The position numbers were made by a program, and so were the translations under genes. A stretch of 63,220 nucleotides of DNA, the filler included, from Phoronis australis (taxonomy: Eukaryota > Animalia > Phoronida), in NCBI GenBank assembly GCA_002633005.1. It is 13 parts of 13 records of this genome, joined end to end, with 100 filler letters (N's around TTAATTAATTAA, not from the genome) between each part and the next. Parts side by side here need not be neighbours in the genome. Positions count along the whole stretch, not along the records: positions 23,847 to 36,012 come from NMRA01001652.1; 12 more parts are not named here. One strand, written 5' to 3'. The notes beneath the pieces were generated by a model. The model was not told the DNA's origin, did not search any database, and saw only the letters and a list, made by a program, of their open reading frames with translations. Of this stretch, positions 5,403 to 36,012 are shown one piece after another (positions within the stretch are counted from its first letter, which is position 1; the number at the start of each line of letters is the position of its first letter).

Positions 5403-5691
5403 ACCATTTAAAGGTATGGCCATGGAGTATGCTATCAGCTTTGGACAAAGGGAATGAAAAGTAATAACTAAGGAATATTACATTATAAGCCATCAGGTGA
5501 AACTCACATCAACAAATCTCTTCTCTTGATCACATGCCTCAAAGTAGGATTTGTGCAGAACCCAAGAACCAGTAGCGATGCAGGCCAAAAACTTTTCATT
5601 CCTTGTCGGCGAACCTAAGATGAAACAAAAAAGTTTCATTTTCAAATTCTGACACAATCAAAAACACAATTCAACTATTGATCACTCTTAA

Positions 5692-7658: not shown

Positions 7659-8839
7659 TTAAGAAAGTTTAATTTTCTTTTACCAAGACACTAGTTTTTT
7701 TGTAAGCATGGTTGTGTTCTCTTGAGTGAGAAAAAGAAAAAAGAGCTTCCCCTAAGCCGACTCTTCGTCAGGTCTGCCAACACTTACCTACAACCAAGTG
7801 TGTACAGTCTGCATCATAATACAATGAGTCCAGCACCCGCCCACCCAGCTGTTCCACTATGGCCCCATAGTGGTCTCGCTCCTGAAATTGTATTAAGAGT
7901 TGACGTCACGTCGGTATATTCATGTATACGCCGCACTTGACAGTGTACTAAACCAGTGGTTGCATCAACAAACAACATTGAATTTAGACCACAATAATTT
8001 TTAAGCTTGAGAAGACCTGACAGTTGGTTATTGTTTCAGATCAGGCTCATCCAGTTTGCCCATCACAGAGGGTTAACTTCAACCGCCAAATCATGTTGTA
8101 GCCGATTATTTCAACATTCAAGGAATCAGTAGTGCAGTTTAGTAGTTGCCCTTTGTTGAGACAAACGTGTTTAGAACACCACTGTAGTTTCTAGTTGATG
8201 GCTTCACAGACACTTGTACTTGCTGTATAGATTTCAATCATCAGGTGTAGTAATGAATTAAATTGCCAGTGCACAGAACTGTTTACCTGACGAAAACTGT
8301 ACAGAGAATATGAGCAATTGTCTGTGAAGCTGTCCAACAGGAAATACAGTGGTGTTTTTAATCAAGTTTATTCAAGGAATGGATATGAATGCAATGACAC
8401 TGCTTTGGAATAGCAAATACGGTCAAGAAAAAAGCTACTTTTGACACCCGAAACTGGTTTATGGAAGTATTAAATACGATTTGTACTGACAAAAGGTGTT
8501 TTTTCGTTTCCATGTGTTTTCCAGAACATAATTTCCATTTTCCACGTGTTTTAAAGGGCGTAACTTTCAATTTCATTTTCCACAAGCCAGCTATTTTCTC
8601 ACACAAAAGTAGCCATAAAGAGCTCTTTAACTGATTGTAGCCAGGCATAACAGACTGTATGAACAGGCCTCGCAAAATGGCGTGTTTTTATTTACCTTAT
8701 AAAAATTTTGACACGTCTCGATTTACATGGAAATNNNNNNNNNNNNNNNNNNNNNNNNNNNNNNNNNNNNNNNNNNNNTTAATTAATTAANNNNNNNNNN
8801 NNNNNNNNNNNNNNNNNNNNNNNNNNNNNNNNNNGGCCC

Positions 8840-9140
8840 TGACCCAGCGTATATTGACGGTTCTTTCAATTGCAAGCTTGTTAAGCTCATTAATACAAGC
8901 ATTAACACAAGTTGACCCTTAGTTTCTTTGAGGCTTTTATTGCTGCCTGGCTATCTGAAAACTTGGTAATTGGCCGATTGCCAAGTTCAGTGTTATATTG
9001 TTGTGCCAGTTGAGCAGCTCTATTAATTGCAGTGATCTCAGCCTGAAACACCGTGGCAAGATTGCCTAGCGATACCCAGTTTTCTGCATCTGCAACAGGG
9101 AGGCTTGGAAAGTAGACCCCAGCACCTGTAGAAGTAAACA
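8840..9140 (-). pseudogene. non-LTR retrotransposon RNase H fragment
   Basis: TGAGVYF...SLGNLATVFQAEITAI...FSDSQAAIKA matches non-LTR RNase H motifs (GAGV, TVFQAE, SDSQAA). Confidence 0.85.
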
Positions 9141-10249
9141 GTGGGAAGTGTGAAGTTTTCTCCTGAGACGAGTAACCCAAATTACACACAATAATACTAC
9201 CGGGTGAGATCAGCCTCATCTGACGTCAGGTTTGGCGCTTATCCCATAACGACGGCAGTTTTACGTGCGTCTCATGTTTCCGTCTAGGATATTACTTCGC
9301 TAGAGACTTGACTTCTCAAATGTTTACTGTGTGTAATGGTCACGGTCTTTTCACTTTTTAATATCTGGTTATGATTAATTGATACCCTCTTCTTTTCATT
9401 CGTAATGGATTTTGAGGTGATGGGAACAGTTATATTGTTTTACATTTTTGTAATTGTTAAGGGTTAATTCACTTATGACGTAATATAGTTAGGGCTGACA
9501 ATTAAGTCAGGTCAATGATGTTTAATGATTTTTGATGTATGCACGGCAATTACGATGATGTGTTAATTAAATGTGAACACTAGATTAAAAATTTAACAGT
9601 AAGAATGGCACTTCATCATTGACATTTGTCAAGAAAGTCATTCATTCAGCTGCAAACTCAATCACTCAAAATTTGTGCGGGAGCAAGTGCATATTCCAAA
9701 GTTCTATTAAAGAAAATTTTGAAGTCAACCTTAACATCAAAGGGACGCCTCTTTCAACCGGGGAGCCAATACCGAAAACGCTATACATCTGAGCCTATTC
9801 ATTAGGTGCTAACCATATCTATACTGGTGTCTCAATCAAATTGTTTCCAGGCAGGAAGTTTTACACCTATCAGCTTTAAACCTACATAGCGGCAAGTCCT
9901 CATAGCTAGCGCCGAAAGGCATTTTGTCAATTACGCTTCACGAAAAGAGAGATGAGGGCGAAGCCCTTGGACAGCTTCAAGCAAGATCGGATGATCTCTC
10001 CTTCTGCCCTCGCTGTACTTGGTGTGGACGTGGAACAGTCGGCGTGGAACTGGCTGGAAGGTGATGGTGTTCTTCTTCTTTGATTTGACGCTGGCTGGAT
10101 GGCAACAGCGTCGTTGGACTTCATAGAGGCAGTTTGACTTGCATGAGGCCGACTTGGTGGCAACAGCGTTCATGCTTGTCCTAAGTTGTCTTTTTACTGC
10201 CTCGTCGGGACAGTTACCAGTTGAGCAGGGCCAGAACCCTTAGGTACAA

Positions 10250-10542
10250 GCTTGTCACGGAAATTCGGCTTAGTGTGGCTTCGCGTAGTGATTGCAATCT
10301 GTTGGAGACAGATTCATGCAGTATGTCGGTTCGGGAGTACCTGGGCTGCCCGAGAGCAATTCTCTGCGCCCAGTTCTAGATCCTCTGGGGATCATCGATT
10401 GTAGAAGGGGCACAGGTGGAGATGTTGATGGCATCATATTCGAATAGGGGCCTAATAAACATTTTGTAAATCAGCAGTAGGCAGTCGCTCCTAGCGCCCC
10501 ACCCTGTCCCCTTCAATCGATACATAATCTTGACTCTGGTAA
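10250..10542 (-). pseudogene. non-LTR retrotransposon RT C-terminal fragment, decayed
   Basis: Minus-strand translation RVKIMYRLKGTGWGARSDCLLLIYKMFIRPLFEY...QRI*NWAQRIALGQPRYSRTDILH matches the LINE 'LxGxxWGA...YKxxIRPxxEY' motif and contains an in-frame stop. Confidence 0.8.
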
Positions 10543-10696
10543 TTATGCTAAGCTACGTTTATGTACTAGTTACGAAATATTATAAGTGGTGGCCGGCAGG
10601 GGTAGCGAGGGAGCTAGCCCCATCCTGAAAATGCGTTTTAGGGGCGCCAAAATCGCAGAGTTGGGACTCAAAATCACAACTTTTACTGCTTTAAAA

Positions 10697-10727
10697 GCGC
10701 GCGCACACACACACACGCACACACACA
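10697..10727. repeat. (GC)n(CA)n microsatellite
   Basis: GCGCGCGCACACACACACACGCACACACACA. Confidence 0.85.
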
Positions 10728-13095
10728 ATGTTCAGACCGTGAGCTACCCAATCAAGATTTAGATTTATCGTGCAGCGCATAGAGAAATAACCCATTAGAT
10801 TTGGACAAAATTACATAAAATCCGGGCAAATCAAGGAAAACATTGGGCAGGGACCGTGCAATGGAAAAATACGGGAGAAACTATAGATATAATAAATCGC
10901 AGCGCCGACACAAGGAAGGAAGATAACCGGATGGACAAAATTGTTGGCGACCGGGATGAAACGGATGGCGATGAGCCGGGGGGAACACATGTAGTTTCAC
11001 AAATAATTACTCAAGCGAGAACATAACAGACAGGTTAAATTTGAAAAATATGTAAACAATTTAACTGCGGAATGCAGCAGACCAAAAATTGTGTCATCTA
11101 GGCTGGAAACATAAATTCGAATAATTTATCTGCTTTATCATATCACACAACACGTTATGCGGTTTTAGACCCGATGACCGAAAAACATGTCTAAGAAAAA
11201 GTCTGGTTCCTAGAACGGGAAACTGAAAGCTCTCAGAGTCCAAGAAATCAAACAACTGGAATCTTCAAGGGAAATTTTCCTTGCGAAGCAGAAGCAGCTT
11301 CGTCTAATCTATGGCTAAGACTGGAACCAAGCGAACACCTCTTGAAATATCAGACAGCTCAAACTGTAGCCTATCGAGGACGAATCCCACAGTGTCATGT
11401 GTGCATTTGCATCATCAAATATTGTTGGGATCGCCAGTGAGGACATGCGTTAAATGCATGTCTTGAATCATCCACGTCGCAGTTTGGAACTGTAAATGCT
11501 CTAAGCATCGTTGGGCACACTTGTCCCAACCCCCTACCTTTGAGGGGTTTTTTCGGAATAAGCCCCCACAACTTCACTACGCACCCCCCTTAATTTCCAA
11601 TTAAGCGCTCACAGCTCAGGCTGTAACGACCACCCGTAATTTACTTCACTAAATTGAGTTTCAAAACTGTAAGTAGGCCCGCAGACAACTTAGCAAACGG
11701 ACCGTTCGACTATCGGAGTAAGCAGAACAGACACCATAGGCAGAAATAAGATATCAGGATGACAAGGCACCCGCACTTTTGAGACGACGCACCACCATCA
11801 AACGAAGGCCTGCACACGTGGAGAGGCGTGCTTCCGTAAAAAAGTAGAGCACTATGTGAGTATGCAACCTGTGCAGACTACCGTGTGAGGTCACGGTGAG
11901 TCGAAATTAGACAGGCCCGCTGAACGGACAATACAATTCTCGAATTTTTTGCACCGCAAGGCAAAACATGGCATCGCGTCCAATATGCATTATCTTTAAC
12001 GGAAAAGATATCAATTTCGGGCTATAATGCCACGGGATAAATTTCTCAACGAAATAAACAAGAGTTTGATTTCTTTGACGTTATTACCCGTCACTAAACA
12101 TATAATCTTCACACAACAGACGCTTTTCCTATTACCGATATTCATACAGATTTCTGGTTTGGCGCTTTGCCAACATAGTGGTCAAGATCAAATAAGTGGT
12201 GCTAATGAATGAGGTATACAGCCAGTGTGCTCAGCCGCTCTTGACCCATCGACGCTCGTATGTAACTACTCAGATGCCACATAGTATTTGCACTCATCTC
12301 ACAGTCGCATGAAGTTACTGGAATTTACAGGCAACTCAGAAGCATGTTTGCCAAACAATTTCCGTCAAACGATTTAAGGGCTTCCGCTGCAGTTGTAGGC
12401 ACATCTTCCACTTCAAAATTACAGTATTTGGTATTCCTTCGCCTAAGCTCCAGCTCAGACAGTTCCGGAAATGGCAAATCCGACTGGTAGGTGCAGAATT
12501 ACGCGTACATTAACTGAGAATAGGCCTGTTCAACATTTCTTATTTGCATACCAAGCGAAACACTAATCTCAAATAGGGGGGTTGTCCGAGTCCCACGCCC
12601 GTCCCCGGCTACGGGCCTGAGTACCACATTTTTTCGAAGAAAAATGTTCAACTTCTTGGCATATAAATCCAGTCTTTTAGCGCGTGCTATGGAACGAGGT
12701 CTCTACTATTAATTAGCGAATAGATTTTGTAGGGGCAAGTGGGTTAGTTTTGATTCAGCTTTTCTCGGTTGGTTAAGCAGTGAAAATTGTAGTTTTAATT
12801 TAAACAGACATCACGTCAACATCGCAGCAACAAAGCGTCCAAATTTTAATCGTGTAATTATCTTTTCACGGTCAGCACAAACACTTCGATAGCATTAAAA
12901 ACATGGCTGCAACGTTTCTGTCATGTCTCGATAGCATGGGCTGCCTCCGCCCTCCTCCCTGTGGGCAGGGGCGGATCTACGTTTTCAGTAAGGGGNNNNN
13001 NNNNNNNNNNNNNNNNNNNNNNNNNNNNNNNNNNNNNNNTTAATTAATTAANNNNNNNNNNNNNNNNNNNNNNNNNNNNNNNNNNNNNNNNNNNN

Positions 13096-13531
13096 CCCGC
13101 CAGTAATACTCCGAGATCGGAATCCGTTGATAACACACCCAGGAATTGTGGCGACACAGTCAATAAGGACTCTGTAGTCTCTAATTATTTATTAACTGAC
13201 CGGACTCATTCCGTGGGTGTTAGCCCACTGCCGGTGTATAGGAGTCCTGACCAGGCGACTGACGGCTCAGAGCAGGAGACGCGTTTGTCTAGGGCAAGCA
13301 TGATATCAAATGCTGAGAGCGATCCGGTGGACATTGATTTGCCATCAGACTGTGATAGTGGGCCCCCGTCAGAGAGGCTTAGAGCCCCCGAGGGCGTGAA
13401 ATATGATAATTTTATGTGCACCTCTACTCCCTCACGCGGGGCTGTGCCTGGCAGCCGTGCGTCACAGGTCACGAACATTCCCGATGGTAGCTACTGTGGG
13501 CAGGGAAGGCACAAGGACGGTTCAATCCTAG
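13096..13531 (+). CDS. exon of an unidentified Ser/Pro/Asp-rich protein (5' truncated by contig start)
   Basis: Open for 145 codons from the contig start, higher GC than its flanks, ending at CTAG|GTGAGA where composition shifts to AT-rich intron-like sequence. No recognisable domain. Confidence 0.6.
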
Positions 13532-14674
13532 GTGAGAACTTGTTTTTGCATCCTATTCGTCGTTGCTCTAATTGGCTGAAGGAATGTTACCATAACGGAG
13601 ATCAGTATTATATTGTTGATGATGCTTTAAGCCAATTTTCTGCCAAAAAATTAACTTTTTTTTGCTATATTATAAAAGTGGTCTTGTCTTGTTCTGTTCT
13701 TTTGTTAGAGGTGATGGACTTAGGGATTAACAAAGTACTCATCTTCCCAGGCCCGCGTTGCTTCAAGATTGAATTAAGAACAAGTTGAGACTAGTTTTAC
13801 TTTGTTCTGAATCAAGATTTAGACAAGTTTTCTTGACAGGAGTCGTGTTCGTAGCATCTGCAGTAATGCAGCAGTGTTTCAGTGTGACAGTTACGACTTG
13901 TGGATACTGTCTAGTAGGGAAATCAGTCGTGTAAATTTTTATAAAAACTGAGTACATATAGCCATTGTGAGCAACACAATTGATGCCCTGTTGTTAAACA
14001 CAAATTTTACCTTTTTGAAGGTGTTTGAGTCGATTTGGCATGTTTTACTTCTTCTGTAATGTATTTTGAACCTTTGAGTAGATTTTTCTAATTTCATTTT
14101 AAAAATTGTTGAAATCATAAATGTGACACTGGGAGCAAGTCGCTGAATGAAAACGCCGCTGTAAATCATATTTTTGCTACTTTCATTACCTGTTTCTGCC
14201 CTAATTGCTCAAACTTCAAATGGCAAACGCTGTGTCAGAACTGAGACTGAAAATTGGCAGACATCTTGGCCACTGAGTAAATTGACAAGAACAGGAAAGT
14301 GAGAGAACAAAGCTTACTGGGACCAGCGAACCTCCTCACCACGTCTCACGTAATGACGTTATTCCTATCAATTTTGTTTTTATCAAGCTGCAAGTGAAAC
14401 ATGTGACATTGGAGTTGTACTTCGGTAGTGTGTCGAGAGTTACGTTCACTAATTTTCCGGTACTCATACAAGCTTCACTTTCGTCTCTTTGTGGCTTTCT
14501 CTCAACTGAGAACGATGTCAGTTTTTGAACAGACCATTGTGGAAGTTTGCCTGTTTGGAAATGAACATATTGAAAAGTTCATCATAGGTGTCTTGTCAAA
14601 TGTTGGCCCTTTTTTTGGTTTTAATTAGAAAACAAGATATTTACGGAAGGGTTCTATGAATGCCATGTTTTATT

Positions 14675-15788
14675 ATGCGCCCACATATTTATATGTGGAC
14701 GCATTATGCCGTCATCTCCGTCCGTCCGTCCGGGCGGCGTCCGTCCGGCGTCCGCTGCTTTATCTCCAAAACCCTTTGACATACGTTCATATATGTTCCA
14801 TTCATGAATGGGACGGCATATGCGAACTTTCGGACGGATCCGGCTACCGGTGTGCCCCCTAGTGGCAATTTTAGTTTTTTACGCTTACCTTTGTATCTTC
14901 AAAAGACCTGAACGGATTTTCATGAAATTTGGTATGTAGGCACCTATTAGTGAGATGACACTATCCTGCCGTTTTCAGATAGATTCGACATATTTTACGC
15001 CACCTAGTGGCCATTTTTAGTGTTTTCGAGTCTGTTTTTGTGCTTCCACCCCTCTATCAACCAAACTGCTCGAAGGATGATTGTGAAAATTGGCATGTAT
15101 ATGCTTACTATGTAGAGGACGGTTGACGATGATTTTCAGACGATTTGGACTACTGTGGCGCCTCCTAGTGGCAGTTTTGTTTTTTTTGCGCCTATGGCTG
15201 TATCTCCTAAACCGTTCGCAGGATCTTTANNNNNNNNNNNNNNNNNNNNNNNNNNNNNNNNNNNNNNNNNNNNNNNNNNNNNNNNNNNNNNNNNNNNNNN
15301 NNNNNNNNNNNNNNNNNNNNNNNNNNNNNNNNNNNNNNNNNNNNNNNNNNNNNNNNNNNNNNNNNNNNNNNNNNNNNNNNNNNNNNNNNNNNNNNNNNNN
15401 NNNNNNNNNNNNNNNNNNNNNNNNNNNNNNNNNNNNNNNNNNNNNNNNNNNNNNNNNNNNNNNNNNNNNNNNNNNNNNNNNNNNNNNNNNNNNNNNNNNN
15501 NNNNNNNNNNNNNNNNNNNNNNNNNNNNNNNNNNNNNNNNNNNNNNNNNNNNNNNNNNNNNNNNNNNNNNNNNNNNNNNNNNNNNNNNNNNNNNNNNNNN
15601 NNNNNNNNNNNNNNNNNNNNNCCCTAGCCTATTGAGGAGACAATGACCATGCCTTTCCATTTTGCAAAGTACAACATACTACATATATGCCCTCTACTGG
15701 CCACTTTATGGTACCAATAAACAACCCTAGAAGGATACCGTATGCGGTGCAATTGTGGGTGCATTTCAACGCTCTGCGTTGCTCTTGT
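14675..15788 (+). mobile_element. Helentron-associated (HINE/DINE-1-like) non-autonomous element, internal N gap 15230-15621
   Basis: T-rich site, then subTIR ATGCGCCCAC, then palindrome CACATATTTATATGTG, then (GTCC)n microsatellite. The 3' end is GGGTGCAT + CAACGC-TCT-GCGTTG hairpin + CTCTTG. This is the HINE/DINE-1 architecture. Confidence 0.75.
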
Positions 15789-17257
15789 GGTAATGTGGAA
15801 CTCTAGAAAAATGTCCAAATTTAGCTAACTTCAGAACATCACATCTCAAAAATGGATGATTGGATTCAAATGAAACTTGCAGCCACTGTACTTTATGCTT
15901 TGTTCTTCAGAAAGCTGTGAGGAATTTTTTTTTTATGTTCCACTTTTGCAGGAGTGATCAGCAACTCAAACATTGCATAAAATGAAAACAAAATGATAAT
16001 TTAGAAAACGGTAACGGCATTTTAGAGATTGCAACTTGTACATTTGTATCAAACAAAATTTGTTATTGATACGGTTGTTTTGCTGTTAAAGTAAAAGTAT
16101 ATATTTTCAAAATTTAAAGTAGAAAGCTTTCATAATTCGATTGTTTACTGTCTTTTACCAATCTGACAATAAGTGGATCACATGACTGTGCTTTTTTAGG
16201 AAAAAATAGCTAGAAAGGAAGGTTCATCTATAGCAGAACAATGGTATCAATATCATGACAAATTAAGTATAAATATTAAATGTTCAAGGTGAATTCACAT
16301 AACCGCTGTTGCAGTTTTCTGGTGTTATTTCGTTTTCATTTTACACTTGTTTTCGATTTTTTTCTGAAAAATCATAAATATACAATTTTTTGATAGGCCT
16401 TCTTCATACGAAATTGGAAAGAATTCCTAACAGCATTCTGGAAAAAAGTGGTGTCTGAAAGTTTCGTATGAATCCGATAGCCATTTCTGAGATATGTTCC
16501 AAAGTTTGCCAAATCTATCCGAATTTGGAGGGCCCTTCATAATCTGAACCCTTCATTGCGAAGAAACAAAAAACAACACGACAGTAACTAATCAACCTAT
16601 CTTCCATAAAGTGATTCCGCATGCCATAGTTATTGTGTATGGTAAACCCAACTATTTCTTGCTCACTTGTTCTCCATACAAGTTTGTACACCTAAGCTTC
16701 ACTCATAGGCCTAGGCAACTATCCCTTGTATACGCTCGATTTGGCGATCTGCAGGTCACCAACATGACCTCAGATTATGCTTGGTAACCTGGAAAAATCC
16801 CAAGGCATCGCAGCGAGTATCTTAAGTTGGACAATAATTCTCCAGAAATTTCAAGGTTTATGTCGTGACTTGTAAAGTTAACAGTTGTCTTGATTTAATG
16901 TCTTTGGTTCACAATTGTTCCATTTATTTCGTGAAATCGGTGCTTTTGCCACCCTCAGCAGTTAGCAAGCATCAGACACGCTTAACTTACAGACGGAAGT
17001 GGGAATTGTTGGGTATGAATCGGGCAAGATGGATGAAACACGCATCCAGTGTATGCGAACATCTGCGTTTTATTGCAGTTGGCAGGATGAATTGAGTTAG
17101 AAGTTGAATGGTACATTTTTTTTTGGAAAAATGGAAGAGGTAATGCGTAAGTTTCTGNNNNNNNNNNNNNNNNNNNNNNNNNNNNNNNNNNNNNNNNNNN
17201 NTTAATTAATTAANNNNNNNNNNNNNNNNNNNNNNNNNNNNNNNNNNNNNNNNNNNN

Positions 17258-17631
17258 TCTAGTGGCAATTTTAGTATTTTACATTGACCTCTGTATTTTC
17301 ATAGGTCTTCAGGTGTATACTTTGTGTTACTTCGTGACTGTGAAGGAAAAGTTCCAAGTAGAAATTTGTTTCTGGCATTCTAATGCTGTGCTAATCTCGT
17401 ATGTTGGTAAATTTGTTTTTAATTCTATGTTTCTGTGGTGCTTTAAGCAACTGGTGTATAGGATGTGCTTGTATCATGAAGATTACTCACATTTTGCCCC
17501 TAGCCTATTGAGGAGACAAGGACCATGCCTTTCCATTTTGCAAAGTACAACGTACTACATATATGCCCTCTACTGGCCACCGTATGCGGTGCAATTGTGG
17601 GCGCATTTCAACGCTCTGCGTTGCTCTTGTT
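17258..17631 (+). mobile_element. HINE-like repeat, 3' fragment
   Basis: 17498-17630 is nearly identical to 15622-15788, including GGGCGCATTTCAACGCTCTGCGTTGCTCTTG. Confidence 0.75.
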
Positions 17632-20349: not shown

Positions 20350-23021
20350 TTTCACATAATTAGTCAACTTCCTTTTTAGCCTGGTTATTTTCACATAATT
20401 AGTCAACTTCCTATTTAGCCTGGTTATTTTCACATAATTAGTCAACTTCCTATTTAGCCTGGTTATTTTCACATAATTAGTCAACTTCCTATTTAGCCTG
20501 GTTATTTTCACATAATTAGTCAACTTCCTATTTAGCCTGGTTATTTTCACATAATTAGTCAACTTCCTATTTAGCCTGGTTATTTTCACATAATTAGTCA
20601 ACTTCCTATTTAGCCTGGTTATTTTCACATAATTAGTCAACTTCCTATTTAGCCTGGTTATTTTCACATAATTAGTCAACTTCCTATTTAGCCTGGTTAT
20701 TTTCACATAATTAGTCAACTTCCTATTTAGCCTGGTTATTTTCACATAATTAGTCAACTTCCTATTTAGCCTGGTTATTTTCACATAATTAGTCAACTTC
20801 CTATTTAGCCTGGTTATTTTCACATAATTAGTCAACTTCCTATTTAGCCTGGTTATTTTCACATAATTAGTCAACTTCCTATTTAGCCTGGTTATTTTCA
20901 CATAATTAGTCAACTTCCTATTTAGCCTGGTTATTTTCACATAATTAGTCAACTTCCTATTTAGCCTGGTTATTTTCACATAATTAGTCAACTTCCTATT
21001 TAGCCTGGTTATTTTCACATAATTAGTCAACTTCCTATTTAGCCTGGTTATTTTCACATAATTAGTCAACTTCCTATTTAGCCTGGTTATTTTCACATAA
21101 TTAGTCAACTTCCTATTTAGCCTGGTTATTTTCACATAATTAGTCAACTTCCTATTTAGCCTGGTTATTTTCACATAATTAGTCAACTTCCTATTTAGCC
21201 TGGTTATTTTCACATAATTAGTCAACTTCCTATTTAGCCTGGTTATTTTCACATAATTAGTCAACTTCCTATTTAGCCTGGTTATTTTCACATAATTAGT
21301 CAACTTCCTATTTAGCCTGGTTATTTTCACATAATTAGTCAACTTCCTATTTAGCCTGGTTATTTTCACATAATTAGTCAACTTCCTATTTAGCCTGGTT
21401 ATTTTCACATAATTAGTCAACTTCCTATTTAGCCTGGTTATTTTCACATAATTAGTCAACTTCCTATTTAGCCTGGTTATTTTCACATAATTAGTCAACT
21501 TCCTATTTAGCCTGGTTATTTTCACATAATTAGTCAACTTCCTATTTAGCCTGGTTATTTTCACATAATTAGTCAACTTCCTATTTAGCCTGGTTATTTT
21601 CACATAATTAGTCAACTTCCTATTTAGCCTGGTTATTTTCACATAATTAGTCAACTTCCTATTTAGCCTGGTTATTTTCACATAATTAGTCAACTTCCTA
21701 TTTAGCCTGGTTATTTTCACATAATTAGTCAACTTCCTATTTAGCCTGGTTATTTTCACATAATTAGTCAACTTCCTATTTAGCCTGGTTATTTTCACAT
21801 AATTAGTCAACTTCCTATTTAGCCTGGTTATTTTCACATAATTAGTCAACTTCCTATTTAGCCTGGTTATTTTCACATAATTAGTCAACTTCCTATTTAG
21901 CCTGGTTATTTTCACATAATTAGTCAACTTCCTATTTAGCCTGGTTATTTTCACATAATTAGTCAACTTCCTATTTAGCCTGGTTATTTTCACATAATTA
22001 GTCAACTTCCTATTTAGCCTGGTTATTTTCACATAATTAGTCAACTTCCTATTTAGCCTGGTTATTTTCACATAATTAGTCAACTTCCTATTTAGCCTGG
22101 TTATTTTCACATAATTAGTCAACTTCCTATTTAGCCTGGTTATTTTCACATAATTAGTCAACTTCCTATTTAGCCTGGTTATTTTCACATAATTAGTCAA
22201 CTTCCTATTTAGCCTGGTTATTTTCACATAATTAGTCAACTTCCTATTTAGCCTGGTTATTTTCACATAATTAGTCAACTTCCTATTTAGCCTGGTTATT
22301 TTCACATAATTAGTCAACTTCCTATTTAGCCTGGTTATTTTCACATAATTAGTCAACTTCCTATTTAGCCTGGTTATTTTCACATAATTAGTCAACTTCC
22401 TATTTAGCCTGGTTATTTTCACATAATTAGTCAACTTCCTATTTAGCCTGGTTATTTTCACATAATTAGTCAACTTCCTATTTAGCCTGGTTATTTTCAC
22501 ATAATTAGTCAACTTCCTATTTAGCCTGGTTATTTTCACATAATTAGTCAACTTCCTATTTAGCCTGGTTATTTTCACATAATTAGTCAACTTCCTATTT
22601 AGCCTGGTTATTTTCACATAATTAGTCAACTTCCTATTTAGCCTGGTTATTTTCACATAATTAGTCAACTTCCTATTTAGCCTGGTTATTTTCACATAAT
22701 TAGTCAACTTCCTATTTAGCCTGGTTATTTTCACATAATTAGTCAACTTCCTATTTAGCCTGGTTATTTTCACATAATTAGTCAACTTCCTATTTAGCCT
22801 GGTTATTTTCACATAATTAGTCAACTTCCTATTTAGCCTGGTTATTTTCACATAATTAGTCAACTTCCTATTTAGCCTGGTTATTTTCACATAATTAGTC
22901 AACTTCCTATTTAGCCTGGTTATTTTCACATAATTAGTCAACTTCCTATTTAGCCTGGTTATTTTCACATAATTAGTCAACTTCCTATTTAGCCTGGTTA
23001 TTTTCACATAATTAGTCAACT
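20350..23021. repeat. 39-bp tandem satellite, ~68 essentially identical copies (downstream of the IRE1 donor, presumably intronic)
   Basis: Unit TTCACATAATTAGTCAACTTCCTATTTAGCCTGGTTATT; only the first copy differs. The array ends at a single N (23022). Confidence 0.95.
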
Positions 23022-23899: not shown

Positions 23900-24500
23900 T
23901 AACAAAATCAGTAAGATTCTGGTGAGCTGACTGATGCTAGGTTGTATAGAGAGATTGCTGGAAGCCTAGTGTATGCCATGACATGCACAAGAACTGATAT
24001 GTGTTATAGGCCTACATTATTGTCTCAGAATATGGCGAAGCCAACCATGGCTCACGTCCTAAACACGGCTAAACATGTCCTTCGTTATATGACTATGGTT
24101 TGAAGTTTAGAAAGACAGATTCACAGTTGAATTTGACTGGATACAGTGATTCTGTTTAGGATTCATTTGTTGACCAAAAAAGTGCGGGGATATTGTTTTC
24201 GCCTGAGAATGGGTCTTTGGTATCTTGGAAAAGCAAGAAGCAGAAGACGGTTGCTTTATCTAGTTGCGAATCAGAGAGTACGGCACTTGCTCTTGCTGCA
24301 CAAGAGGGGAAATTTCAGAAGCAATCGTTTGCTGATATTACTTGTAGTTTTAACTCTGCAACAACTATACGTCTTGACAATCGGGGTGCAATGGCTCTAC
24401 ATAAAAAAACAGTGTATCATCAGAGGTCTAAACACATAGACATCCAATTTCATTAGATCAGTGGTTCAAACAGGTCGTGTAGAGTTGTCTTATACCCCAT
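23900..24500 (+). pseudogene. Ty1/copia retrotransposon RT-RNase H remnant (frameshifted)
   Basis: YREIAGSLVYAMTCTRTD..., GYSDS, LVSWKSKKQKTVALSSCESE...DNRGAMAL...VYHQRSKHIDIQFH* are copia pol motifs with frameshifts and a stop. Confidence 0.92.
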
Positions 24501-26587
24501 TATCCCATACGCGTTGAATCAGTCGAGGGAAATAATAATGTTTCCGCATTCACCTCCCGCACGTCTACTTTTAACAGTGACCTCTGACATGGAAAGTTCA
24601 AAAAGTAGGTCAATGTCGACTCGACGTCGTTGGCCTGTTCGATCATCAAACTTTTCGAATACAGTTTAAAGTAATACAGTTGCAGCAGTATAAATAACAC
24701 TCAACATGCAATCAGGCCCTAAACGTAACATCTAGTACAAAACTGCTAATTGTATGACACTTCTGTCTCAGTTTTCAATATTATTGTTAAATATTATATC
24801 GTCTGCAACTCAGGAGCCGATTTCTCGGTAACTACAATATCAAATGATGTTGTTTGTAAAACTATTTTCAGGAAATGTTACAAGTTCAATGCTAAATTAC
24901 CGTTGTTTTCATCTTTGTTATCTCTTTTCAAGTAAGAAACCGTTACATTTAAAACTGTTTCTTTTACTAGAGAAAACTGGTAACCTAACGCTCAAGTATA
25001 TACAGTATACTCAAAACGTACCGAGAGTGGCGTACATCTCAGATAGATCCAAACAATGTGACCCAAATTTCGCCACAAAACTTGCAATAACTTTACACTG
25101 CTTGCCCCGATTTTGATACTTTTTCGATTTTTACTGAGTAGAATGCGCTACCTTTCCGATAATAACAAAGTACTTTTTCAAAACGAGAAAAAAAATAAAA
25201 CCGAAAAAAATTGTTTCGACCCATATTTGTTCCTAGGTTCAACCGGCCTACGTATGGAACTAAACACCAATGCTATTTTAACATATTAAGTACGCGTAAC
25301 ATTCCAAAAAAAATCAACGACCACTAACTACAAACTATAAATACACTACATATGCAAGCGAATCACGAGATATTGCTAATAAAACAAAATAATGAAGACT
25401 TTTCGAGTAAGCGATAGCACATTTAGTTACAAGGAAAAAATGGCGGAGTTCAGGACAAGTTTCTGAACTGATGAGCCGGAAATGTGGGTACGGAAATAAC
25501 CGATGACAGCCGGTAACTATACGCTCACAGAGACTGTTAAAAAATCGCTTTTGGCAAGAAAGGCGAAAAGAATATAAAGGGTGTCGAAAATAAGATTTTA
25601 TGTAGTAAGTATTTTCGGATGACTGGAACCACATGGGCATTTTGAGACCAGGTCTTTAAAATTATTTTTTTGATTCACTTTATTTATATTTTGTTTCAAT
25701 TTTTATTTGGTTTTAAGTAAAAACATTATTTTAACAAGAATAACTCAACGTTTCTTAAAAGGACACAATCTCCAACCCCAGACCTCTGACATAGAAAGTA
25801 GTTACAAAAGCCGAGGCTAGTCGATAAAGGTAGATCGATTCTTTGAAATGTTTATCGTTTAGTGTGTGGTATAAATATATTATTACATGTTCTCAGTCGT
25901 TATCCCCCTTATCTTTTGCTCTCGGGCGATAATTCTCCAAAATCCACTCGGGCTCTAGATTACGGGGAATAACGACTTCGCCATGTAATAATCTACATTT
26001 ATACACCATCTCATGGGCGCATCCAGGGGGCCGTGTATGGAACGCCCCTAGCGTCACCTTGTGACGGGTCTTTTCTGACACGTGACGAGTCATTTTTGAC
26101 ACGCTGACGCGTCAATGATGCTTTCGAACACATGTGGACGTTGTTAAAAGAACCAATCAGTGTTAAGGTTACATAGTGTGTTGACTAAACCAATGAGGTC
26201 GTCGTGTTTTGACGTGACTGACAACTACAAATGCTGTCAATCATATATCGACTAAGTCCTCGAATGCAGAGCGCGAAATCGTCACTTGAAGTGTGCTGCC
26301 TCACAGAGATTGGGGTGACTGAAAGGAATTTATACGATCAACAGGTACTGTGACGGGTACGGTGACGGCAATTTCGTTTGATGGTGGTGTATTTCAGGAA
26401 TTGCTTTCACCAGACAGGAGCTTGACCTAATAATTACATTAATACCAACAACAGCAAAGCCTAACATCGTGTGGCGAGGACAATTCGAGTTCTGCCAACA
26501 GGCAACATGGCGGTCAGATGAGCGACATTACAATTGAACTTCACGGAGCAAGCTTGTGTAGGCCTACTGCATGGAATACATGTCAGA

Positions 26588-29500
26588 ATGTCTGAATTTG
26601 TTCTCGATTGTAAACGTGAGCTGGAGTGTTGCTGTAGACATCTTTCAACGGACCAAGTGTCGCAAGAAACTGTCACTTTCGTGAAAGCGAAGTAAGTTGA
26701 CCTTTTTCTGGCTGGGTGTGATGTGCTCGACTACTTTAGTTTATGTACTATAGCAGTGGTTCAACCCAGTGTAGGTTATACAAAAGAATAGAATCGTACC
26801 TAACCTGGGGTAACGGTTTACTATAGAGTACTGCATGAAAGTACTTATGATCTGGAAAATTATGATGTGCACCCATTTACACAGTGAAGAAACTTGGCTC
26901 AAAAACTTACCTTTTGACAAAATGTTTCCCAAAAAACACTGCCTTTTTGTTGCTTTAATTTCACCACGGGGTACCTGGGGGAGGGTGGTTCTTTTGAAAG
27001 TGTACCACATACAGGTCAGAGTCTATATACCTTTTGGCTAGTAAAAGTTTAAGCCCCGTATGGTGCACCGCTCATGACCAGCCCCAGGATATCCACATTT
27101 CCTTAAAAAGCTCTTGCCTTGAGCTTATACCCACATGTTTGAATCTTTCCTATGATTAAGGGACTTGGCCCACCCATTTATTTCACAAAGCTTTGTGTAA
27201 AGACAAAATTATTTTCCCTGTCTTGATTAATAACTTAGAACGTTGCTTATGGTTACCTTTCAGATTGACCACTTTAACTAGAAGTATACAGAATGCTGTT
27301 GGTGGTGGTGTTGTCGATGAGGCTTCTTCAGCAAAATTATTGAATTTTGCTAGGAGGTTAACGGAGGAGGCAAATCAAGCTGCATTTGAATCAAGTGAGC
27401 GTCATTGTCTGTGTATTATAGTTTCGGCCACATAAAGACAGTGAATGAATAACATGATTTCCTCTGTTACACAGCGTTATTTTAGCAATTGAACCGATGC
27501 TTATTAAATTAAAGATACCAACATGTCACCTTTATCTTTACCTTGAGGTACCCTTTGCAGTGAGCACTTTTAGGTTATTCCTATTTGCATGTCTGGGTGT
27601 TCATTGCTGTCACGTTTATTGCACAAGTTAATAGAGAGCTTACATATCGCTGCTTACTAAGTAATGAATTCCAAGAACGTATTTGAAAATGATATGCCGA
27701 GATCCCTCGTTTTACACGACCAAAACTCACTTGTGTGCATTTCAGCGGGATTGTTTACGCACATGTTTGGTATCTGGTATCGTGTAACTGGCCATATGCG
27801 AAAACTCGGTTCTTTTGTTTAAAATAATCTTTCAATGTGTGATGTGTATTGCAGGTCAAAACACGTGTACATTGCAAGTGCAACGCTTTTTGGGTACATC
27901 GAAGTTTGACATAACCTCATCTCAGTTAGAGTGTATGATAAAAGCAAACTTCACACGACAAGAGATGGCTGAATCAATGGGAGTTAGTTCCTCTACCATA
28001 TCACGTCGACTGAAGTATGTTATAATTTTATTACTACTGTTTAAGCATGGACACTGACTCTTGACTAGTGCTTAAGGCCTACCAATTAGATGGATAGAGC
28101 TCTTAATTAGTGGTGATTAATGTAATTCTATCACTTTAGAATCTTTAGATTGCATCTGGTAAATGTCATCCATTGCATAGGTGGATCCAGGATGTCTTAA
28201 GGGGCGGGGCACTACATCTTCCAACTGGCAACTACCCAGGAAGTCTAGTAATTCCCCATATTTTTTAGTCACACCCAGTTTCAGACTAGTGTTCTTGATT
28301 TTGATTACTTGCTATCAGAGGGGGAACCAAAAATCTTGTTTAATTGTGGCTTTCACAAATTGGCCGCAGTACAGTTACTATCCCCAAGTATCACAATTTA
28401 CATTTTGTATATGACTGTAACTAAGCAATCACTTGAAGTTTGCATAGGCCTTGATGTTAATATATCAATGTTTCTTGGTTCTCAGGCAGTATGATATGTC
28501 TACAAGACAATACAGTGAGGTTGCGGACTCAGATCTAGACTCAGCTGTTAAAGGCATAGTTGGTTTGTATTGTAAAATTGCACTTCAAAGTTGAACTAAA
28601 TTATTTATCATTGGATTATGATTGCCGTAGACACCTACAAATGACCACATGTGAAACAGTACACTTTTGCAAGACCTCCCGACTCAAATGTTTCGCATAT
28701 ACATGTGCATTTGCTCAAGATTTGCAATTACGTGGATGCGGGTCACCTCACCAAGATGCTGTCTGGTGCTCCGATTACAGACAGACTTTTTTGTTTTTGA
28801 ACAAACACTATTCCACGCAATGTGTGGTGTGACAGCTCTTGCAGTAATAAAAATTAGAGTAATTGTTCAAAAATATACCAAATTGTACTTGTATGTTAAG
28901 CCTTGAATGGTTGTTGAGAAAAGTAATTAAGTACGATGTTCATTCCAGTGGCTGGTTGCATGAAACAGTCCTTATTAGGGAATCAACTATGTTCCCTTAA
29001 ATGTTTGGCATATTTGTTTGGTTCATAACTCACTTGTGTAATGTTTTCCTATCATTTTACTTTTGTTGCATGCTCCTCTAATAATATACGTGAAAATTGA
29101 GCCCTTAATTTCATCAAAACTATAAGGGACTAAGTCCTTAAAGGGCGTTGCACGAAAAGATCCCTACTTATTTCCAATAGTAATGCGTCTTCTATGTTGT
29201 ATTTATACAATCTTCTTGACAGAATTATTTTGTTGTATAACCATCCATTTCTTGCAGTCAAATAGTGTTATTCTTGAACTTTAGTGAGAGTTTTGTGATG
29301 GGTTGTTTAATTGGCATTGCATTTGAATTAAAACTGGTTAAAGTCGAAGAGAAATGGATATTTAGGTGCAGTTTTATGCGGTTGCGCATTAGGTACCTCA
29401 AATTTTGGCGCTGGCCTTTGTATTTTGGAAACTTCTTTTTATGCGCCCACATATTTGTATGTGGACGCATTACACCGTCATCTTCGTCCGATGGGCGTCT

Positions 29501-32340
29501 GCCCTATCTCCAAAACGCCTTGACGTACTGTTCATAAAATTTTGCCTGAAGGCACTGTTGTAGTGCTTCAGGCATTGTAAGACATAAAAATTCTAAGAAA
29601 ATGCTCATTTTTACGAAAAAATTTGCACCTCATTGAGTTCAAACACAAATGCTTTTGAAGTGTAACATATTTGGTGTTGTATTTTACCGGTAATTTCTCA
29701 TCTGCTCAGTATAAATTTTGTCTGCTTGGGTACCCAAAGCATTCATCCAATTAATAATGGCAATTTTCCTCATGCACACCATATTTTGCCAGTCTTCATA
29801 CAGTAAAACCTCTGACTCTAATTTCGGAAAATCTAGGACACTAATTTCAGACAAACATAATTGCCAAAATTGCCCATTTTTCATGTTTCAAAGGCTTCTA
29901 ATATTGTTATAAGTACCCACACTTTTTCTAAACTTTGTCTGATGGTAGCTATGAAACTGTGAAGCCATCATTTTAGACAGCTATTGCTGATAGGATACAT
30001 TTTTACAGTCTATTGAACATGATCATAAACTATATCACACTGAGTTGCACACAGGTCAATTTCGATCAGGTAAAATGTGGGACCCAAATAACCAATAACA
30101 CCCCTGAACCTGTGCGAATTTGGGTACGTTTCGTTTACAAATATGTCTTTGTCCGGTAACCAGCCTTGCGCAAAAGCTCCCTTAGTGTCAGACATTCAAA
30201 GGATTCGTTTCAACTCTTTTTCGTTTGACTTTTAGGTGACAACCAACAACTGGGTGCTAAATCTGTACTGGGTAGCTTATCTGCACAGGGCATAAAAGTC
30301 CAAAGACGGCGTGTTCGTGACAGCTTGGTGAGGGTGGATCCTGCTGGAGCAGCAATGCGTGCAATGTCCAACAAAATTCAAAGGAGGACTTACAAAGTAC
30401 CTGGTCCTAACTCTCTGTGGCACATTGATGGCAATCACAAGTTGATAAGGTAAACCAGGGTTCATTGTACAAATCTCAAGCCATGGGTCACATAACACAT
30501 TACAGCTAAAATCAATTGGCCATTTTTCAGACTCGAGCGTGTCATCACCCAAGCAGCCTGAGGAAAACAAACATGACGAGACTTCAGTATGTCATTTGAA
30601 ATTTTAATGTGCCCAGGTGTTGTAGTGCAGTTCGGCAAAAATGAGCCCTGTAAACTTGTTTACTTTCATTATGGTTCTCAAGTTGTTTTTGAAAAGGAAC
30701 ACTTGAACTAAATGCTTCTAATGTGATGTTAAAACAATGGAATGTAAGACGTTCTCTATAGCGGTGCTATTGTTTGTTCTTTAATGAGAAATGTCAGGAT
30801 GTCTTAGAAAAATGGAACTGCAAACTGTATACAGATGCTGCTGTCTCATTCGCGCAATTCGTGGTATTATGCTAGCAGGGCAACAACAAACATTCTGTCG
30901 TATGATAGTCGGCTGTATCGACACATTCGCAGTCACATTTGTTGTACGAATGTCATACAATATTAATCTAAGGTTTCACTAACTATATTGTATGCCTGTC
31001 ATTAGATTTGTAGTCCCATTTTAAAGTACGACATTCCCAGGGCATGTACATGATGGTTAAACATTTGTGCGAGTGTCCTTTGTCTCGTGTAAGATGATTA
31101 TAGGACTATTCTAGACTCTCGGACATACCAAATATCGTGTGTCAGTCATAACTGTCATACACAAATGTAAGGCATCCCACGACACTCTCGCGATTTAGAT
31201 CTGTTGTTGAACAGTTGCAATAAGTTGACATGCTTTTGCACAAGTTCTCAAATTTCCCGACGCTGTTCTATGACAGCATACTCCAGCGCGTGATACAGTA
31301 AAATTGCACGAACTTTGGACAAAAATAACTGCCATAATCCACCATTTTTCAATGGTTCTAATTCATGGGCGCATTTCAATGCTCTGCATAGCTCTTGTTG
31401 TTTCACTGTTGCCTGTTTTGTTACAAAAGAGTTCAGTTCCGATAAAAGATAGTAGCCCCTATGAAACCGAGTGCCTTGGTACAATACTCCAAATGTGCTT
31501 ACATGGGGTGCCACACATGTTTGTTGCTGACACATTTTTATTAATACTACCTGTTCAGAAACATGGCAATATTGTTTCTCATCTTATATCTGGTATAAGT
31601 ACATATTTTGTTTTAGATGGAGAATTGTCATACATGCTGGAGTAGATGGGGACACCCGTTTCCTAGTGTATGCGAAAGCATCCTCCAACAACTGTTCTAC
31701 AACTGTACTTGATTGTTTCCGAAAAGCAGTGATGAACTATGGTGTGCCTTCTCGAGTTAGATGTGACCATGGTGCGGAAAATGTGCATGTATGTGCATTC
31801 ATGGAAATGTTCCGTGGTCTGGACAGAGGGAGTGTCATTCAAGGGAAAAGTGTGCATAATCAGAGGATAGAAAGATTGTGGCGAGATATGTGGCGTGGTG
31901 TCACCAATGTGTACCATGAGATGTTTAGTTTTTTAGAGGAGAAACGTCTTTTGGATCCAGATGACCAACTGTCCTTGTGGTGCTTGCACTATGTCTTTAT
32001 ACCCAAAATCAATGAATCGCTGAAAGCTTTCCAACATCAGTGGAACCACCATGGTCTCCGCACAGAGAGGGGCAAGTCGCCATACAAGCTGTTTGTACGA
32101 TTGTTGGCATTACAACATAGCAATCTCACTGCTGTATCAGAGCTTTTTGACAACTTCTCTACAAATTGTGAGTTACATAACCAAGAAAGCATAGCACCGG
32201 ACTCTTCTCCATGTCCGCTCTCAAATAACGACCTTTCTCGGCTTGACGAACTTGTATCTTCACTGTACAATAGAGGAACTCACAAGTTACAAGTTTATCA
32301 GAAAACACTAGAATATGTAAAATCAAGTTCTCATTCATAA
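26588..32340 (+). CDS. DDE transposase, integrase-core/IS3EU-like, 6 exons (26588-26691, 27264-27394, 27855-28014, 28486-28562, 30236-30449, 31617-32340), 469 aa
   Basis: All five introns are GT-AG with compatible phases and the exons sum to 1410 nt with no stop. HTH ([22 protein letters not shown]), then [65 protein letters not shown] (D-D-E triad intact), [11 protein letters not shown]. Confidence 0.9.
28950..29180. mobile_element. truncated relative of the 3741-4149 MITE in transposase intron 4
   Basis: GGTTGCATGAAACAGTCC end plus an internal segment (AAAATTGAGCCCTTAATT...GGGACTAAGTCCTT...ATCCCTACTTATT) matching the reverse complement of ~3917-3996. Confidence 0.7.
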
Positions 32341-32823
32341 CCTAGGTGCTGCTGTTAATGTTAAAATGTTCGTTTGTTTGTTAGTTTTGTCTGTCAATTT
32401 CAAATAGAAATGTAACCCCAAGAATAACCTGTCCTCACTGAGAGCAAAAGTCCGCTTACATCTTCGATTACCAGGTTCTTATGCTCAAGGATCTTCATTG
32501 TACTTAGGCATATACCTAAATTCATACTACGAACTATTTTGATATTAGTGCTGTTGTCTGTGGATGTATCTTTAGGAGAGTGGTGTTGAACACCAGTCTC
32601 GGATAAAGTTCGGTTAACCACCCCCTCCTGGACTTGTTGAAATTTCATGTTTTAGTGCCCAAGTCAGGTTAATCTCCCACCCTCGAATTTTTGGCCATGC
32701 CAGTTTAACCGCCCAGGGCGAAAACCCGAATGTTTACAGTAAAAACACAACTTAATAGACTGTCTCCACTGAGCAAGACTATATTACGTACTGATACATC
32801 ATTACTGATCAAGAAAATAGAAC

Positions 32824-35800
32824 CTATAAGGAATCAACAACTGATGGCACAGCACTGTGAAAATCAGCCAATGTCACTGTCATCAAGTCCTGGTTACTGA
32901 CCGCATTGCCCTCGTTTATTTGGATAAACAGTCTTTCGTTAATGACATTTTTGACTGCACAGGCTACCCTAACGCAGAAGCCACCGTTGTACTTTTGCAG
33001 GGTGCTACACTCCACACAGGTTTCTAAGTAGCATTGAACTTCCTTGTGTGATGGAACCACTGTATAGCCGTCTGTTTGTAACATTTGAAATAGAATGTCT
33101 GTTAACTCAGACATGGAATAGTCATGGAATGTAAAAGTGTGACTAATCCGACTCTTAAGGCCTGGGTTCGAGTTTAACAACCTTGACATCTCCTTTGGAT
33201 ATCCCGCTAAGATAATGCTGGGCCTTAGAGTGCTTGTTGATGCACCACCCTCCATGGTCGCCATTATCGTCTCCAAAGCTTCTTGCCCATAGTCCTTGCT
33301 CTCCCCACCTCTAACAAGCCGGTACGCTTCGTCTACAAACAGAGTTACTCCCATGGCTTCCATTAGCACATCCTGGGTCTTGATTGCAGTCTGGCCAATG
33401 TGGCCAGCTACTAGATCTTCTCGCTGGACCACAAAGAGCTCTGGGCTGTCAACAAGACCTGACAAGTGCATGACATCTGAAAACCAAAATTAACTGTATA
33501 AACTGGAGACGTTATGGACACATACCAATAATTTTTCGGTTACAGCCCCCTACTTTGAAGGCTCTTTGCGAAAAAAAATTAATCCAAAGGCCATAATTGA
33601 AATTCTTATGATTAACCTGAATTAAGTAGCACAAAAACAGCTTAATTACTTATGAAAGGTTTTCCCCGACTAGGAGCTCAAAGCTACCTTTTGGATTTAA
33701 TTTTATGAATCTATTTTAGTTAATCAAAATTCTTGTAAGTGTGCATAGACATGTTGAATGTTGCCACTTCTGTATTGGCGTCTGCTGTTAGTGTTGTTTA
33801 ATTGTATGAAGCACTTCTGAAATTATATACTGATTCAAAATAACTGACAAAAATGAAAATTTTCACTTGGAAATGCAGTATTTACAGATATGTTATGGAA
33901 CACACCGTACAAGTTTCGTGAAGATCGTTAAGGACAGGTAGGGGTGGAGGGAGGCACAACGTGACAGAAAATGAAGGTAAAATGCACTTCCAAATGAACA
34001 AGCAGAACATGGAAATGCATTACAATCTGATCTTTGTGCGTAAGGAATGTTTTTAAACAACGACGCATCATAACATCTGAAATATTTTACAATTTCAACT
34101 TACCAGCTACTATCTTGGCAAATGATGTTTTTCCCGTCCCTGGATTGCCTTGGAAAACTATATTTGGCCGACTGCTTGATACTGGCAAACCTCGTACTGA
34201 GCGAACTTTGTTGACAGCGGCCGTCATCGCAAAATTCCTCAGCTCGGTTTTTAACCCTTCTTGTCCTACAACTGATGACAGCTTCTTTCTCACTGTGTCA
34301 CTCAAGTGCGCGATGAATTCTGTAGAATTACAAGTAACTCGTTTTCATTGCAAAGGAAAGGTGAAAGTAAGGAGTGGGATCTAAAAATGTCAAAAATTTT
34401 TGTAAACTTTGGAACATCATGTCTCGCTAATGTCCGGTTGATCAAAATACATTTACACATACGATTTGTGGGCTGTTCTCCAAAATATTGTTAGAACTAT
34501 ATATGTGTAATGTTTTAAATTTGCTATCAAAAGACTGTTACTTCAATGATTTTTATAAAAAAAAACTAAGCTTGCATTAATTTTACGCGTACATCCTGGA
34601 TCCCGCTTAATGCTTTTACAGGATGTTGGATGAGGTCCAACATAACCTTTACATACAAACTTAAATTACCTTTATCATTGAAACAGGTCTCGGCTTGACC
34701 ACAAAATCGCCTCTTCTTTTCTGGCACTTCAGAGGACTGAAAGGAATACCAGGGCAGATCTAGTCCAGTTTCCAGGAAAGACAAGTTTTTACATTGCATG
34801 CTGTAGCCTTGTAAAAATGTAAATAGTTAATTAAATTGGTCTTTATACTTGTGGAAGTAATTCATCACCTCAGTGACCTTCAACAGTAGTACCTCAGACA
34901 AAGTAAATTTACTTGCTGATAACTGAATCCCAATGCTCTTACAAGATGAATGTAGCTAAGTTAAGGTAAATGACAACCCTTGTTACAAAGTATATCATTA
35001 ACTTGTTAAGTATTAGTTGAAGATCCATAAAACTAACCAAACCTCACACAAACATTTATGTAGGTACGGAATAAAGATGCACAACGGCACTTTAGATAGC
35101 ACTTTGTTTGAAGATTTACTTCTAAGCAGAGTAGTTAGCAAGAAATTTATGTACTTAAATGTATTTGCATGTTTAGTACAAAGTCATTTTTAAGTTGTGG
35201 ACCCACTGTCAAATTATGTCATCTAGTGCCTGTTACATCATCGTTAAATATCTAACTTTGGGCGACGTGCAAAATCCATCTGACTTGATTTCTGTATTTA
35301 GTCGTCCTGTTAACTCAGCGAAATAGAGCGTATGGAAGGATAGCAGAGGTTCTGGGTGCGAGCCCTAGTCCTAACAGGAATATTGTCATAGTGTGTGACA
35401 GTGCAAAGCCGTATTTGACACGTAATTACTTCTCATAACTGCTTACCTGTGTTTCAACATAGCAATCTTCACTGGAATCACTCAAGTCAACTGGAGTTGA
35501 TGATGTGACAGCACGTTTTCTATATACAAATCCACCTGTAAAAAGTGAATGTTAAATTGATCTACAGTATAAATCTTACTACTGGCTGTTAATACAAATA
35601 ATTACAGGACACCGAAGTTTTCTGAAATTTGAATTTCAGTACTCAGATATTAACTTAACTTGAGTCTTGCCAATGCATACATTTGAATGCTCATTAATTT
35701 TTTGTACTAAAAGTTTTGATGTTACTTTAATTGTACATTGTCTTCTAGTGACACATGTTGCATAAAATTGTTGTTAAGGCTAAAAGATAATCTTTTTCAG

Positions 35801-36012
35801 GAATATAGACCGATGGGAGGACAAGGTAAACTGAAGTTTGAATATCAATGTCTAACGAGATGCCGCTATACTTTCAGACTTATTCAAGTTTGGTCAAAGA
35901 CTATTTCTGTACAACTCTTCATTACTTACAAGCGACATTATCAGGCTCCCTTAACCACTCATCAAACGTTTCACTGGACATCAGTGACACTGAGCTATTG
36001 TCAAACAACAAC
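32824..36012 (-). CDS. CbbX/CfxQ/SpoVK/EccA-family AAA+ ATPase, 5' truncated; exons >36012-35930, 35535-35447, 34736-34670, 34319-34104, 33476-32824 (>368 aa)
   Basis: LSSVVGQEGLK, Walker A FQGNPGTGKT, QREDLVAGHIGQT, Walker B LFVDEAYRL, DYGQEALETIM, IILAGY, NPGLKSRI..F.F.DYS are diagnostic of the CbbX/SpoVK clade. The last two exons are firm; the three upstream exons rest on GT-AG sites and phase continuity only. Confidence 0.88.
35305..35380 (+). mobile_element. degenerate tRNA-like / tRNA-derived SINE head in an ATPase intron
   Basis: TCCTGTTAACTCAGCGAAATAGAGCG (A-box-like) ... GGGTGCGAGCCC (decayed B-box) ... TAACAGGA; terminal stem TCCTGTTA/TAACAGGA. Confidence 0.5.

Follow-up and report, generated by a model that had tools for sequence, protein, structure and literature searches.

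In IS21 (IstA/IstB), Mu (MuA/MuB, together with ClpX) and Tn7 (TnsB/TnsC) a DDE transposase adjoins an AAA+ ATPase. A pairing of this general kind in an animal is the subject of this analysis: on one contig (NMRA01001652.1) of the phoronid Phoronis australis, an IS3EU-type transposase gene and a gene for an AAA+ ATPase of the SpoVK/CbbX type stand tail to tail, and we consider it probable that both belong to one IS3EU/GingerRoot transposon, cut by the contig end, in which the ATPase occupies a partner slot that elsewhere holds a HECT ubiquitin ligase or a protein kinase. The likeness to IS21, Mu and Tn7 lies in the transposase standing beside an AAA+ ATPase, whereas the ATPase of this locus is of a different AAA+ clade, the two genes face each other instead of being co-transcribed, and relatives of the transposase occur without an ATPase.

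The IS3EU/GingerRoot superfamily of Repbase is treated in PMC10045372 and PMC6839031, and IS3EU is described as two-protein-encoding in PMC10853768. Published IS3EU ends are TA..TA with 6-bp target duplications, and PMC12730594 gives fungal ends of the form TAYGG..CCRTA and, in its section 4.1, rust-fungus IS3EU elements carrying an alpha-kinase in opposite orientation. With these fungal elements and with two complete animal elements described below (L010 and L065) the present locus shares the opposed orientation of transposase and candidate partner and, in its probable left end, the TAYGG motif; the partner is a protein-modifying enzyme in those elements, whereas here it would be a protein-remodelling ATPase whose linkage we infer. 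The IS3EU family is known and two-gene IS3EU elements are common; the ATPase is probably a new partner type in this family, and no ATPase partner of IS3EU was found in the paper listings searched, and Repbase or Kojima's 2019 review may record one.

The transposase gene and the probable left end

The window (the whole stretch of DNA analysed, 63,220 nucleotides) strings together 13 short contigs with spacers between them, and adjoining contigs need not be genomic neighbours; both genes lie on a single contig (positions 23847-36012 of the window) bounded by assembly spacers. The sequence-only reading had described a spliced 469-aa transposase on the plus strand and a spliced AAA+ ATPase on the minus strand with stop codons 483 bp apart, and the exon models bear this out (Table 1). 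All five predicted introns of the transposase are of the GT-AG type, the frame contains no internal stop, and the catalytic triad (D222, D279, E314) is intact, as had been claimed. Its proposed IS3EU identity agrees with a match to the Pfam model rva_4 (PF24764, E-value 1.7e-70), next to weak helix-turn-helix (HTH) matches on exon 3, and with a motif-by-motif agreement of the core, compared by eye, with the Repbase IS3EU rows in the PMC10045372 supplement. Fish, echinoderms, a priapulid and a sea anemone supply the best named homologues, and the transposase nested among these relatives in a tree built by a quick method with Shimodaira-Hasegawa (SH) support values (support 95). Assignment to the IS3EU/GingerRoot lineage is therefore supported at the sequence level. 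The locus resembles this lineage in the integrase-like DDE core of the [12 protein letters not shown] subgroup, the probable TA.. left end, the N-terminal HTH and a size within the range; it differs in that the right end and the second target duplication would lie outside the contig and in that the candidate partner is an AAA+ ATPase. In one fish gene model (P0381) part of a HECT gene is joined with an exon of an IS3EU transposase, probably because adjacent transposon genes were merged during annotation.

Table 1. Coordinates (window positions) of the features of the candidate element and its surroundings.
Feature	Position	Strand	Basis or remark
Separate high-copy repeat flanking the candidate element at its left end	24500-26002		loose ends ahead of 24500 and past 26002
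Candidate target duplication GCCGTG	26030-26035		directly before TATGG; left flank only
Probable left end, TATGG with short GTGACG/TGACGC-type subterminal repeats	26036-26210	+	family end motif
IS3EU transposase gene	26588-32340	+	6 exons (26588-26691, 27264-27394, 27855-28014, 28486-28562, 30236-30449, 31617-32340); 469 aa; HTH and DD(34)E core
Spacer between the two stop codons	32341-32823		483 bp; contains the 32741 end of a very high-copy small repeat
Repeat-family-shared 3' part of the ATPase gene (last 65 codons and 3' flank)	32754-33021		heterogeneous, dispersed, indel-bearing
AAA+ ATPase core exons, SpoVK/CbbX clade	34807-34670, 34319-34104, 33476-32824	-	profile, PDB CbbX, RNA joints
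Predicted upstream ATPase exons	34955-34913, 35535-35447, 36011-35930	-	prediction; frame open to contig end

A terminus upstream of the transposase had also been proposed. The TATGG at 26036 is real, follows an unrelated high-copy repeat at a distance of 33 bp and probably represents a left end that fits the IS3EU family in sequence; the boundary was placed by motif and is unmarked by loose ends, a 5-mer of this kind occurs twice in 26003-26587 and is weak on its own, and no end-repeat match pairing with it as a right end was found anywhere in the window, in which this contig stops at 36012. Contig depth in one DNA sample was used as a clue to copy number, and is to be read as a hint rather than as a copy number; unique contigs had a depth of 20-28, whereas many diverged contigs stacked on 26123-26204, within about 170 bp after TATGG, reached a summed depth of about 1000-5700, set against 22-28 for unique contigs. 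Besides the flanking repeat in Table 1, three further very high-copy small repeats lie inside the candidate element (one from 29436, one up to 31399 and one up to 32741), the last reaching a depth of 98,000 at 32721 and stopping in loose ends at 32741. Depth was low over transposase exon 5 and was not used as evidence. Long unbranched contigs of single depth and with no second allele cover 29552-31822 and 33434-36012, and a 98% variant exists for 27281-28076; the single-allele stretches could mark a hemizygous insertion, with no baseline for comparison.

Parts of exons 4 and 6 are matched by a sister transposase family that is homogeneous, has a depth of about 600-900 and gives sense transcripts. 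Of 28 listed differences, 17 are at third codon positions (p 0.003; selected rows). RNA reads of the sister family have loose ends at 31637, where exon-4-like letters stand directly before exon 6 (21 reads, agreement 0.73). This suggests that the exon encoding the first catalytic Asp is left out of its transcripts, and that these are non-autonomous.

The ATPase and its relatives

The three core exons of the ATPase join in frame, and with the predicted upstream exons they form a 406-aa open frame (candidate ATG at 35981) for which the 43-bp predicted exon is required. The upstream exons had weak RNA cover, confined to the bin 35424-35577, and gave no NCBIfam match. Runs of the same species label were used for the RNA comparison (span 31420-36012), and their reads, which lie on the expected strand, support the joints 33476/34104 and 34319/34670: the first intron (33477-34103) is skipped by one read each in X5 and X6 and in one X8 contig, and the second (34320-34669) by two and seven reads in X5 and X6, respectively. 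The junction check that the sequence-only reading had called for thus confirmed two ATPase introns within this span. The motifs reported as intact were all recovered (Walker A GNPGTGKT, Walker B FVDEAY, arginine finger NPGLKSR), as was sensor-1 (AGY).

The proposed CbbX/SpoVK type is supported by profiles, solved structures and fold. The ATPase matched the NCBIfam models TIGR02881 (E-value 1.1e-37) and TIGR02880 (3.2e-35), the search of solved structures returned CbbX (PDB 3SYK, 3SYL, 3ZUH), and a structure model with a predicted local distance difference test score (pLDDT) of 83 had CbbX as top fold match, followed by Vps4, the proteasome and p97; these results support its placement in the SpoVK/CbbX/EccA clade. 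Both NCBIfam matches are below the curated cut-offs (last exon 130 and 122 bits, Walker A exon a further 40 and 28 bits, versus 423 and 459), and by this measure the protein appears not to be a true CbbX or SpoVK orthologue. PMC11513918 gives a GY in sensor-1 and a conserved Asn before the arginine finger as the clade signature, and describes the characterised members as chaperones with a narrow range of substrates, which are recruited through the N-terminal part. Likeness to the clade lies in the GY sensor-1, the NPGLxSR arginine-finger region and the CbbX-like fold. Differences are that the ATPase here is encoded by an intron-containing animal gene, that no MIT domain was seen in it, and that at positions which we take to be the pore loop and sensor-2 of CbbX, Tyr is replaced by His and Arg by NGG, as in protist MIT-AAA proteins. 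Sensor-2 reads YNGGF in the ATPase and NGG or NAG in the relative P0121 and the protist MIT-AAA proteins, versus NAR or NGR in most bacterial rows in which the motif was found; judged from these residues, the ATPase would be part of a derived eukaryotic branch of the clade that has not retained the sensor-2 arginine.

A protein search with the last exon was dominated by bacterial multi-AAA proteins and returned one close relative, P0121, with 44% identity. Sufficiently long matches were used for two midpoint-rooted maximum likelihood trees (56 and 55 rows), in which P0121 paired with the ATPase (99/95 and 98/96) and protist MIT-AAA proteins formed the sister group of the pair (100/99 in each tree), with bacterial and viral versions placed elsewhere; three of the protist sister proteins have a Pfam-verified MIT domain. 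The start of P0121 coincides with the start of the last ATPase exon, which suggests a shared intron, and the ATPase family would accordingly seem, by sequence, to be present in at least one other sample. Many giant-virus contigs (L091-L157) encode SpoVK-like AAA+ ATPases, and those included in the tree fall outside the clade of this ATPase. A shared N-terminal domain of the ATPase and the L065 partner was considered and dropped, as its profile had only one other full-length match.

Probable linkage of the ATPase to the element

The partner-gene architecture of the family was determined in 27 related transposase loci (19 and 8 fetched regions) from prokaryote assemblies with apparent animal host contigs, 20 of which are longer than 13 kb. 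Several of these assemblies (L009-L027, L058-L065) hold long intron-rich contigs resembling animal host DNA. A partner gene facing the transposase tail to tail was present in six of the 20 long loci, a HECT ligase in five (L010, and as gene pieces in L012, L025, L059 and L062) and a kinase in one (L065); L012 and L059 are near-copies, leaving five independent cases. Pieces of a HECT gene in another or broken arrangement were found in four loci (L011, L060, L061, L064), and in the remaining ten no recognisable partner was found. The distance from the end of the transposase frame to the partner stop was 236-2893 bp in five loci (upper bounds if a further exon follows), versus 483 bp here.

Two of these loci hold complete elements with 20/20 end repeats: a 7.3-kb IS3EU element in L010 (8824-16130) with a facing spliced HECT gene and the exact 6-bp duplication CTACAC, and an 8.1-kb IS3EU element in L065 (4072-12132) with ends TACGG..CCGTA, the exact 6-bp duplication CTTTTC and a facing spliced protein-kinase gene, whose transposase belongs to the other subgroup. 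The right end of L010 lies about 590 bp upstream of the likely start of the partner, and at a similar distance the right end of the candidate Phoronis element would be beyond the edge of the contig. The element in L010 is itself bracketed by a larger inverted pair (7240-17606), and L026 contains a 1.66-kb IS3EU deletion derivative (9186-10845) that has an exact duplication and long end repeats; its end starts much like the left end in the window.

Other transposase copies ending between the two genes (32340-32824) had been named in advance as what would speak against a shared element; at this locus neither a CCRTA motif nor an end-repeat match was found in the spacer. Since neither the spacer nor the rest of the window yielded a right end, and given the family architecture, the ATPase is likely to sit in the partner slot, inside the element. 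The earlier claim that the ATPase is the second gene of the element is in this respect likely to hold, while no second copy carrying both genes was found. The right end would lie beyond 36012, and the ATPase may have been captured from an old eukaryotic MIT-AAA-related lineage, replacing the ligase.

Several results weigh against this linkage. No AAA match was found in any of the 27 related loci, and the ATPase was not found in eight host-contaminated genomes, a search run with no positive control. A metagenome scan with the ATPase returned seven loci (two of the protist MIT-AAA type, a eukaryotic fragment with introns and four that are probably bacterial), none with an adjoining transposase, and viral scans with the ATPase returned first no locus and then 485, of which 80 were kept and none carried this transposase. 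The upstream ATPase exons had no detectable similarity to the HECT partners. The ATPase region 33434-36012 forms one unbranched 2.6-kb contig (depth 27.7 at 80% identity or more), and contig depth thus hints that the DNA sample holds no near-identical multi-copy two-gene family. The young sister transposase family departs from this sequence after 32309 and does not extend into the spacer; an RNA contig with an ATPase 3' fragment extends for about 1.3 kb with no listed transposase match. Finally, three other samples (S2, S3, S5) from two other studies contain ATPase transcripts with about 98-99% identity, as for a fixed host gene. Viral scans with the transposase gave one bacterial IS481-like match and then none, and no further copy of either gene was found in the window.

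These observations raise the alternative that a right-truncated IS3EU copy lies by chance beside an ordinary single-copy host AAA+ gene of a MIT-AAA-related family. The apparent uniqueness of 33434-36012, the near-identical transcripts, the old eukaryotic clade with its intact protist members and the lack of an AAA partner among the 27 loci would all fit it. The sequence-only reading had regarded an ATPase that is single-copy and syntenic in related species without the transposase as evidence against a shared element, and the single-copy side of this was in part what we found; a multi-copy ATPase gene was rejected, as only fragments are multi-copy and most of the gene looks unique in the DNA contigs. 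The shared 3' part (Table 1) has a summed depth of 750-890 in up to 17 contigs with a common breakpoint at 33021 and RNA from both strands, and it shows no visible continuation into the transposase; a further dispersed coding piece lies near 33424. Such dispersal of coding pieces is expected for transposon-borne sequence and argues against chance neighbours, although the copy data fit one complete copy with deletion derivatives and also a host gene with a captured fragment. Chance adjacency would in addition need a deletion of partner and right end that left a host gene tail to tail at a typical distance, in a window in which recognisable genes are sparse (Pfam matches in 5 of 71 frames, from three genes). 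We regard it as unlikely, though the most probable alternative to a partner gene within the element.

It is still less probable, and in our view improbable, that the locus is an old, immobile two-gene element in which one or both genes are maintained by selection. Both reading frames are intact despite several repeats inserted in introns, and other samples hold, besides the near-identical ATPase transcripts, one 164-base transposase contig with four differences. Against such a fixed or domesticated pair stand the preserved left-end motif and multi-copy subterminal region and the existence of the young sister family, whose third-position excess is also expected for active transposons.

Putative role of the ATPase and other features of the window

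If the ATPase belongs to the element, it may form a ring and remodel a single protein to which it is dedicated, most likely the transposase complex of the element or a host silencing or turnover factor. That related elements carry a ubiquitin ligase or a kinase in the same slot points to an exchangeable accessory gene and not to a required motor; because ligase, kinase and ATPase share the slot while the transposase stays ordinary, the ATPase would be an exchangeable helper acting on protein, not a DNA-targeting motor like IstB or TnsC. That one slot takes all three enzymes suggests a common task carried out on a protein substrate, with a bearing on how eukaryotic transposase complexes are dismantled and on why a second gene is retained in IS3EU elements. 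By analogy, and tentatively, the locus might represent an animal cut-and-paste transposon with its own AAA+ unfoldase that dismantles or activates the transposase complex, a built-in counterpart of ClpX on MuA, in which ligase, kinase and ATPase would be interchangeable means of removing or resetting the transposase after integration; we hold this to be rather doubtful. A complex prediction for the two last-exon products scored 0.00 (made without alignments and on partial domains) and is no evidence either way.

The least probable reading is that the ATPase is central to transposition in the manner of IstB, MuB or TnsC and brings the transposase to target DNA that it has bound. The general pairing of DDE transposases with AAA+ ATPases and the weak IstB matches of the Walker A exon (E-values 0.003 in Pfam and 0.026 in NCBIfam, overall 0.003-0.05) could be cited for it. 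The ATPase scores far better to SpoVK/CbbX/EccA, however, no transposition ATPase is among the fold matches listed, and close relatives of the transposase occur in the complete L010 element without an ATPase. The earlier placement of the ATPase outside the IstB/MuB/TnsC clades is accordingly borne out, and the protein appears not to be IstB/MuB/TnsC-like in sequence.

Elsewhere in the window Pfam matches of the vinculin family and of the leprecan type were found, which together with introns point to animal DNA. A broken remnant at 23915-24453, which had no Pfam match, is presumably a copia-like reverse transcriptase/RNase H, judged from its motifs. A near-perfect tandem array with a 39-bp unit (68.5 copies, 99% match) occupies 20350-23021.

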